From Escherichia coli (lineage in GTDB: Bacteria > Pseudomonadota > Gammaproteobacteria > Enterobacterales > Enterobacteriaceae), in assembly GCF_003334405.1 (NCBI RefSeq), contig NZ_QOWM01000005.1: a stretch of DNA of 64,000 bases; one strand, written 5' to 3'. This document shows, one piece after another, positions 13,436-13,579 of this stretch; position 1 is the first letter of the stretch; each line of letters begins with the position of its first letter. Below the pieces are notes generated by a model. That model saw nothing but the letters and a program-made list of their open reading frames with translations. It was not told the origin of the DNA and did not search any database. The translations under genes and the position numbers were made by a program.

Positions 13436-13579
13436 ATCAACACCAACCGGAACCTCCACCACGTGCTCGAATGAGGTGTGTTGACGTCGGGGGAAACCCT
13501 CCTGTGTACCAGCGGGATAGAGAGAAAGACAAAGACCGGAAAACAAACTAAAGCGCCCTTGTGGCGCTTTAGTTTTGTT
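13436..13579 (+). ncRNA. ryjA: Candidate small RNA (RyjA-like) in ghxP-soxR spacer
   Basis: TACAAT -10-like hexamer at 13424-13429, no credible ORF, ends at strong hairpin aaagcgcc-cttg-tggcgcttt plus T-run; about 140 nt; position matches what I recall for K-12 RyjA. Confidence 0.4.
13550..13579. terminator. Bidirectional terminator shared by soxR (minus) and the candidate sRNA (plus)
   Basis: Perfect 8-bp inverted repeat overlapping soxR stop; T-runs on both strands. Confidence 0.7.

Follow-up and report, generated by a model that had tools for sequence, protein, structure and literature searches.

The SraL (RyjA) small RNA gene in the ghxP-soxR spacer of an Escherichia coli contig

The gene of SraL (RyjA), a known 141-nt small RNA of the Enterobacteriaceae, was assigned with high confidence to the plus strand at 13436-13576 of the window, i.e. 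the whole 64,000-nucleotide stretch of E. coli DNA that was analysed. According to this assignment the gene has its own promoter and an intrinsic terminator, and its product would act as it does in Salmonella. The identity of the RNA and the placement of its promoter and terminator are evident from the sequence taken together with existing annotation. The gene at this position is already known as the type member of a described family, and nothing about it is new. SraL/RyjA has been catalogued since 2001, with an Rfam family, a K-12 reference annotation and two targets, tig and rho, validated in Salmonella, and the finding carries little weight as a discovery. Its discovery in E. coli is credited to Argaman 2001 and Wassarman 2001, as cited in PMC3753932. 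The original prediction, a reading of the raw sequence made without tools, got the 5' end, the strand and the name of SraL right. The features of the locus are as follows, with the basis of each in brackets.

13401-13408, plus strand: conserved CTGGCGAA (CTGGCRAA in orthologues), at -35 to -28 from the start (column identity)
13424-13435, plus strand: extended -10 element with TACAAT (13424-13429), followed by the A/T-rich discriminator TAAAGC (sequence reading, column identity)
13436-13576, plus strand: sraL/ryjA small RNA gene, 141 nt (full-length RF01408 match, identity to MG1655)
13437-13484, plus strand: 5' domain closed by helix 1, nt 2-8 with nt 43-49 (covariation)
13460-13469, plus strand: tig-complementary segment, nt 25-34, CACGUGCUCG (seed search against the E. 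coli tig leader)
13486-13530, plus strand: central domain with helices nt 51-53/93-95, 55-57/62-64 and 65-70/77-82 (covariation)
13519-13552, plus strand: A/G-rich, mostly single-stranded stretch, nt 84-117 (AGAGAGAAAGACAAAGACCGGAAAACAAAC...), running into the 5' arm of the terminator (conservation, PMC5575007)
13545-13576, plus strand: Rho-independent terminator of sraL with a U-rich tail (terminator scan)
13569-14033, minus strand: soxR coding sequence, convergent with sraL (ORF list, MG1655 annotation)

In the ORF list, ghxP (11674-13023, minus strand) and soxR are separated by a spacer at 13024-13568. Its predicted length of 545 bp was confirmed, with the ghxP start codon reaching to 13023 and the soxR stop codon starting from 13569. 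A covariance-model search, suggested along with the original prediction, was run with Rfam over the whole window. The family RF01408 (sraL, 'Hfq binding RNA') was matched end to end (model positions 1-142 of 142) at 13436-13576 on the plus strand, with 153.3 bits and an E value of 1.1e-34 against a gathering score of 39. On the minus strand the palindromic terminator alone matched this model, at 23.7 bits, which is below the gathering score. A permissive Rfam search across the entire spacer turned up no further RNA family on either strand. Meanwhile, the stretch was identical at 141 of 141 nt to the ncRNA ryjA (b4459) of E. coli K-12 MG1655, annotated there at 4277926-4278066 on the minus strand between soxR and ghxP. 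Thus the name RyjA and the plus strand, both proposed from the letters, proved right on the scores of the two strands and the MG1655 identity. The proposed 5' end near 13436 agreed as well, because the RF01408 match and b4459 both begin at 13436. The 3' end had been put at 13579, 3 nt beyond the annotated and model end at 13576, although the placement of the terminator itself was correct.

The window consists of K-12-like DNA in reverse orientation relative to MG1655. The sRNA at this locus (RF01408; b4459; in Salmonella, sraL between soxR and STM4267) shares with K-12 its sequence, neighbours, strands, -10 box, start and terminator, and no difference from the K-12 ryjA locus was detectable; the window thus holds the type locus in reverse orientation. 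Genomic position gave the same picture, in that both the window and MG1655 have soxR convergent at the sRNA 3' end and the ghxP/yjcD/STM4267 gene divergent on its 5' side. Over the 4 kb compared, the sole difference from MG1655 was at 11582, a T6 versus T7 run in the ghxP-yjcE intergenic region. The spacer was found in 5421 of 5426 complete E. coli genomes. In PGAP-annotated E. coli records, soxR is the sole feature named under the sraL stretch, and the sRNA is left unannotated in most of them. None of the analyses made gave evidence that contradicts the identification as SraL/RyjA; the weak points lie in the mechanism in E. coli.

Conservation was assessed on 43 loci from Escherichia, Salmonella, Citrobacter, Klebsiella, Raoultella, Enterobacter, Leclercia, Lelliottia and other genera. 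These loci were retrieved with a pattern built from two conserved segments, which forces nt 10-22 and 53-64 of the RNA. When the forced segments were excluded, the mean column identity inside the RNA was 0.886. In the flanks it was lower, at 0.60-0.70 upstream and 0.556 in the soxR coding tail. Because column identity falls off beyond the RNA, both ends of the gene as judged from conservation agree with those annotated. Wherever the fetched DNA was long enough, soxR was convergent just 3' and ghxP divergent 5' of sraL, with one exception: the locus of Citrobacter sedlakii NBRC 105722 (1-1742) has sraL and ghxP, yet soxR is missing from the 1.6 kb that follow the sRNA. Two further loci carry unexpected labels. 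The contig JAEWQV010000038.1, from a 'Bacillota bacterium' MAG, holds an enterobacterial ghxP-sraL-soxR locus whose SoxR and GhxP are 100% identical to those of E. coli. The contig CACSKA010000007.1, labelled Chryseobacterium sp. 18061, holds a typical enterobacterial ghxP-sraL-soxR locus with SoxR 82% and GhxP 93% identical to E. coli. Both contigs look like contamination or mis-binning in public assemblies.

The secondary structure was examined by projecting the Rfam structure onto 38 distinct orthologue sequences, the pattern-forced nt 10-22 and 53-64 being included. Across these sequences 95.6% of the cells were paired, compared with 40-54% when the partners were slid. Compensatory double changes were found at eight pairs, four of them in helix 1, three in the helix nt 65-70/77-82 and one in the terminator, and none of 500 shuffles reached the observed values. 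In helix 1 the four pairs are out of seven, with 96.2% of cells paired among the 38 orthologues; in the helix nt 65-70/77-82, 97.8% of cells were paired. The helices nt 51-53/93-95 and 55-57/62-64 are invariant. RNAalifold independently recovered helix 1, the central helices and the terminator. The paired columns also distinguished the strands, with 79 G·U cells on the plus strand versus 6 A·C cells, which would be G·U on the minus strand. The thermodynamic fold by itself was only weakly unusual (z -1.99 on the plus and -1.38 on the minus strand). Since the folding energy departs so little from expectation, the hairpin and the hexamer would be insufficient proof of an RNA gene.

The heptamer ACCGGAA occurs twice in the RNA, at 13446-13452 (nt 11-17) and 13535-13541 (nt 100-106), each time within an invariant single-stranded segment. 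In the centroid fold, the palindromic CCGG cores of the two copies pair with each other. Because the columns are invariant, covariation is neutral on this long-range helix.

The TACAAT hexamer, predicted to be -10-like, was recovered at 13424-13429, 6 nt before 13436. It belongs to the extended -10 sequence TACAATTAA, of which eight of nine positions match the sigma-S type TAYRCTTAA. The -10 element and discriminator have a mean column identity of 0.859 over the 43 loci. Among these loci the -10 positions A -11, A -9 and T -7 are invariant, and no indel separates the box from +1. Further upstream, the CTGGCGAA block stands out in the 43-locus alignment, with a column identity of 0.7-0.9 against about 0.3-0.5 in the neighbouring columns. 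The block represents the -35 region of the sraL promoter, in degenerate form, or else a site for a regulator. A generic sigma-70 scan did not flag the sraL promoter, because its -35 region is degenerate and a poor match to TTGACA. The sole plus-strand hit of that scan, at 13831-13859, was disregarded as lying inside soxR. A sigma-54 reading of CTGGCRAA was rejected as well, for a GC element is missing 12 nt further on and the distance to +1 does not fit. The conserved TACAATTAA at a fixed distance from +1, together with a degenerate -35, fits a putative sigma-S promoter. In Salmonella, SraL is nearly gone in an rpoS mutant, a promoter lacZ fusion is RpoS-dependent and the sraL promoter is enriched more than 100-fold in RpoS ChIP (PMC3753932).

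In most non-Escherichia genera a strongly conserved TTAACTATAG(G/A)AA motif precedes the sraL start by about 85-100 nt. At the aligned position, 13337-13352 of the window, Escherichia carries GATTGCGATAAAAAATCG instead. The motif may be a regulator site that was lost or replaced in Escherichia.

At the other end of the gene, the terminator scan listed a single plus-strand site in the region, a stem at 13545-13575 with 13 pairs (6 G-C) and a 5-nt loop, followed by TGTT. The hairpin and T-run had been predicted at 13550-13579, a range that indeed takes in the G+C core and tail of this stem. Nine of the 13 pairs are invariant, and one pair shows a compensatory change from U-A to G-C. The predicted overlap with the soxR stop codon holds too, as TTA on the plus strand (13569-13571) lies inside the 3' arm of the stem. 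The SraL 3' end in E. coli thus overlaps the last 8 nt of soxR, stop codon included. The overlap is a feature of Escherichia and its close relatives alone. Most other genera have the end of soxR further downstream, a few to about 500 nt away from the sRNA. The same palindrome also ends soxR on the other strand, where the hairpin is followed by TTTGTTTTCC, so that a bidirectional terminator is plausible from the sequence. Under its strict rule, the terminator scan did not list the hairpin on the minus strand.

Several other readings of the stretch were weighed. According to one of them there is no independent RNA gene here, and what is conserved amounts to the terminator of soxR plus regulatory DNA that serves the divergent ghxP. 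In its favour, the hairpin covers the soxR stop codon, the spacer holds ghxP upstream sequences with PurR-box-like sites, and PGAP E. coli records name soxR alone at this place. We nevertheless give this reading a negligible probability, because conservation and compensatory changes reach 110 nt upstream of the terminator, which excludes both a terminator and regulatory DNA as the whole explanation. Against it stand also the conserved -10 box, whose spacing to the 5' end of the conserved block is constant, and a covariance-model match that takes in the non-terminator domains, as does detection of the RNA by Northern blot, RACE and RNA-seq in E. coli and Salmonella (PMC3753932, PMC5389530). A small mRNA or dual-function RNA has hardly any chance of being correct either. 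It would use a 26-codon frame from ATG 13471 to TAA 13549-13551 or an 88-aa frame on the opposite strand, and mechanical ORFs of 62 aa (plus strand, 13363-13551, which begins before +1) and 88 aa (minus strand, 13316-13582) do cross the region. Both are unannotated in MG1655 and unconserved, in keeping with the earlier statement that the spacer has no credible ORF. No Shine-Dalgarno sequence precedes ATG 13471, and in most genera this codon is changed to CTG/CCG or moved by 1-nt indels; further along, indels are not multiples of three. Across 43 species the ORF length ranges over 0-168 aa on the same strand and 24-119 aa on the opposite strand, and the substitutions track base pairs, not codons.

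If the RNA gene is accepted, its main job could still be cis-antisense control of soxR, through the 3'-end overlap or through collision of convergent transcription, instead of regulation in trans. We consider this very unlikely. The 8-nt overlap in E. coli is small and lies inside the shared terminator stem. As it is confined to Escherichia and close relatives, a cis-antisense role is unlikely to be the conserved function; most genera do without the overlap and yet the sRNA body is about 89% conserved. Silva et al. do term SraL an 'antisense sRNA' (PMC3753932), and sraL and soxR are convergent in every locus examined with soxR in reach. However, the same work validated the Salmonella trans targets by compensatory mutation (PMC3753932), and the C. 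sedlakii locus keeps the sRNA with soxR missing over 1.6 kb. An RNA acting in trans, namely SraL as described in Salmonella, is the reading followed below.

By analogy with Salmonella, sigma-S RNA polymerase would read the sraL promoter, so that the RNA, stabilised by Hfq, would accumulate on osmotic stress and in stationary phase. Its 5' segment would then pair with the leader of tig (trigger factor) just upstream of the ribosome-binding site, leading to less tig mRNA. Pairing with the rho leader would block Rho's premature termination of its own mRNA, so that rho expression goes up. For E. coli itself, published work shows that PAP I polyadenylates the full-length RNA and thereby starts its decay. 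In such a scheme SraL would tie the sigma-S stress response to protein folding, via trigger factor, and to the level of the termination factor Rho.

Published data bear on several of these steps. In Salmonella, SraL cuts tig mRNA about two-fold via 7+3 bp between its 5' region and the leader a few nt upstream of the SD, a pairing proven by compensatory chromosomal mutations and gel shifts (PMC3753932). For rho, Silva 2019, as summarised in later sources, reported that SraL-rho leader pairing prevents premature Rho-dependent termination (PMC6582626, PMC12360218, bioRxiv 10.1101/2024.02.02.578684). In E. coli, RyjA was detected at full length with RNA-seq and tagRACE; it is polyadenylated, and its full-length form accumulates in a pcnB mutant (PMC5389530). 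When RyjA was overexpressed in E. coli, no phenotype in biofilm, motility or fimbriae resulted (PMC4606813).

We looked for the corresponding complementarity in E. coli. SraL nt 28-34 (GUGCUCG) is fully complementary to tig -29..-23 (7 bp) and nt 25-27 to -21..-19 (3 bp), with a 1-nt bulge between them, in agreement with the '7 and 3 bp' described for Salmonella (PMC3753932). Taken by itself, the tig run is at the level of chance: a Watson-Crick run of at least 7 arises in 371 of 500 dinucleotide-shuffled sRNAs. The best run against the rho leader comprises 13 bp including 2 G·U, between nt 35-47 and rho -243..-231. It is marginal, being reached by 23 of 500 dinucleotide shuffles, and nt 35-47 is paired internally in the consensus structure. 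Whole-molecule RNAduplex runs of SraL against the tig and rho leaders gave loop-filled hybrids that were no better than shuffles (123/300 and 258/300, respectively). Likewise, segment-limited duplexes of the two single-stranded regions with tig and rho were no better than shuffles. Because the tig run is at chance level and the rho run marginal, we infer the E. coli targets from Salmonella; the pairing predicted for E. coli is compatible with the Salmonella mechanism. The segment nt 25-34 varies among species, as in the Klebsiella GCGCAAUA variant.

The sequence features relevant to Hfq are the U-tail of the terminator and the A/G-rich nt 84-117. The latter stretch is near-invariant across genera and lies outside the pattern-forced segments. 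Schulz et al. 2017 assigned to RyjA 84-117 an (ARN)x motif that, like the one of OxyS, lies between two stem-loops (PMC5575007), and this published motif coincides with the invariant stretch seen in our alignment. Hence nt 84-117 is proposed to be an (ARN)x motif for the Hfq distal face and/or a seed region. In a Salmonella hfq mutant SraL decays faster (PMC3753932), and Hfq co-immunoprecipitation in early stationary phase gave 0 SraL reads in Salmonella (PMC2515195). In view of the 0 reads, Hfq involvement rests on the stability data. The most conserved single-stranded part of the RNA is nt 81-109, GAUAGAGAGAAAGACAAAGACCGGAAAAC, which is distinct from the tig-pairing segment. It is conceivable, if rather unlikely in our estimation, that nt 81-109 is the main seed or Hfq distal-face dock for further E. 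coli targets, in which case tig and rho of Salmonella would be only a partial or lineage-specific regulon.

SraL can be set beside other small RNAs. Like SraL, SdsR (RyeB) is a stationary-phase, RpoS-transcribed, Hfq-associated and base-pairing enterobacterial sRNA; unlike SraL, it has an unrelated sequence, locus and set of targets. DsrA, ArcZ and RprA act on the rpoS leader much as SraL is reported to act on the rho leader, in that pairing to a long 5' UTR prevents premature Rho-dependent termination. They are different sRNAs and differ from SraL in their target and in that they also open a translation-inhibitory hairpin. OxyS, MicM/ChiX, MgrR and OhsC resemble SraL in having an (ARN)x stretch between two stem-loops. 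The layout of SraL is close to that of OxyS, with structured 5' domains, a conserved A/G-rich single-stranded stretch and a terminator hairpin (PMC5575007). OxyS, however, is unrelated in sequence and is OxyR-dependent and linked to peroxide stress, and distal-face Hfq binding of RyjA is a proposal.

Some observations concern the rest of the spacer and of the window. Allowing at most one mismatch, GCAAACGTTT has six matches window-wide, three of which are within 150 bp upstream of ghxP (13140-13149, 13183-13192 and 13282-13291, plus strand); a weaker copy is near 13089-13098. Two of the matches upstream of ghxP lie in the direct repeat AAAAAAGCAAACG(T/A)TTA. The cluster resembles what we take to be PurR operator half-sites (consensus ACGCAAACGTTTTCNT), and such PurR-like sites would fit the purine transporter gene ghxP. 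Elsewhere in the window, a lysine riboswitch aptamer (RF00168, 99.5 bits) was found at 57981-58177 on the plus strand, presumably the lysC leader. The stretch 55793-55942 (plus strand) is a full-length match to the enterobacterial sRNA family STnc430 (RF02053), with 79 bits against a gathering score of 47. Finally, naRNA4/CssrE (RF02564) was matched four times with 67-84 bits, at 6128-6198, 42108-42178, 46337-46407 and 56008-56078 (minus strand), and these four matches are REP/BIME-type extragenic palindromes.
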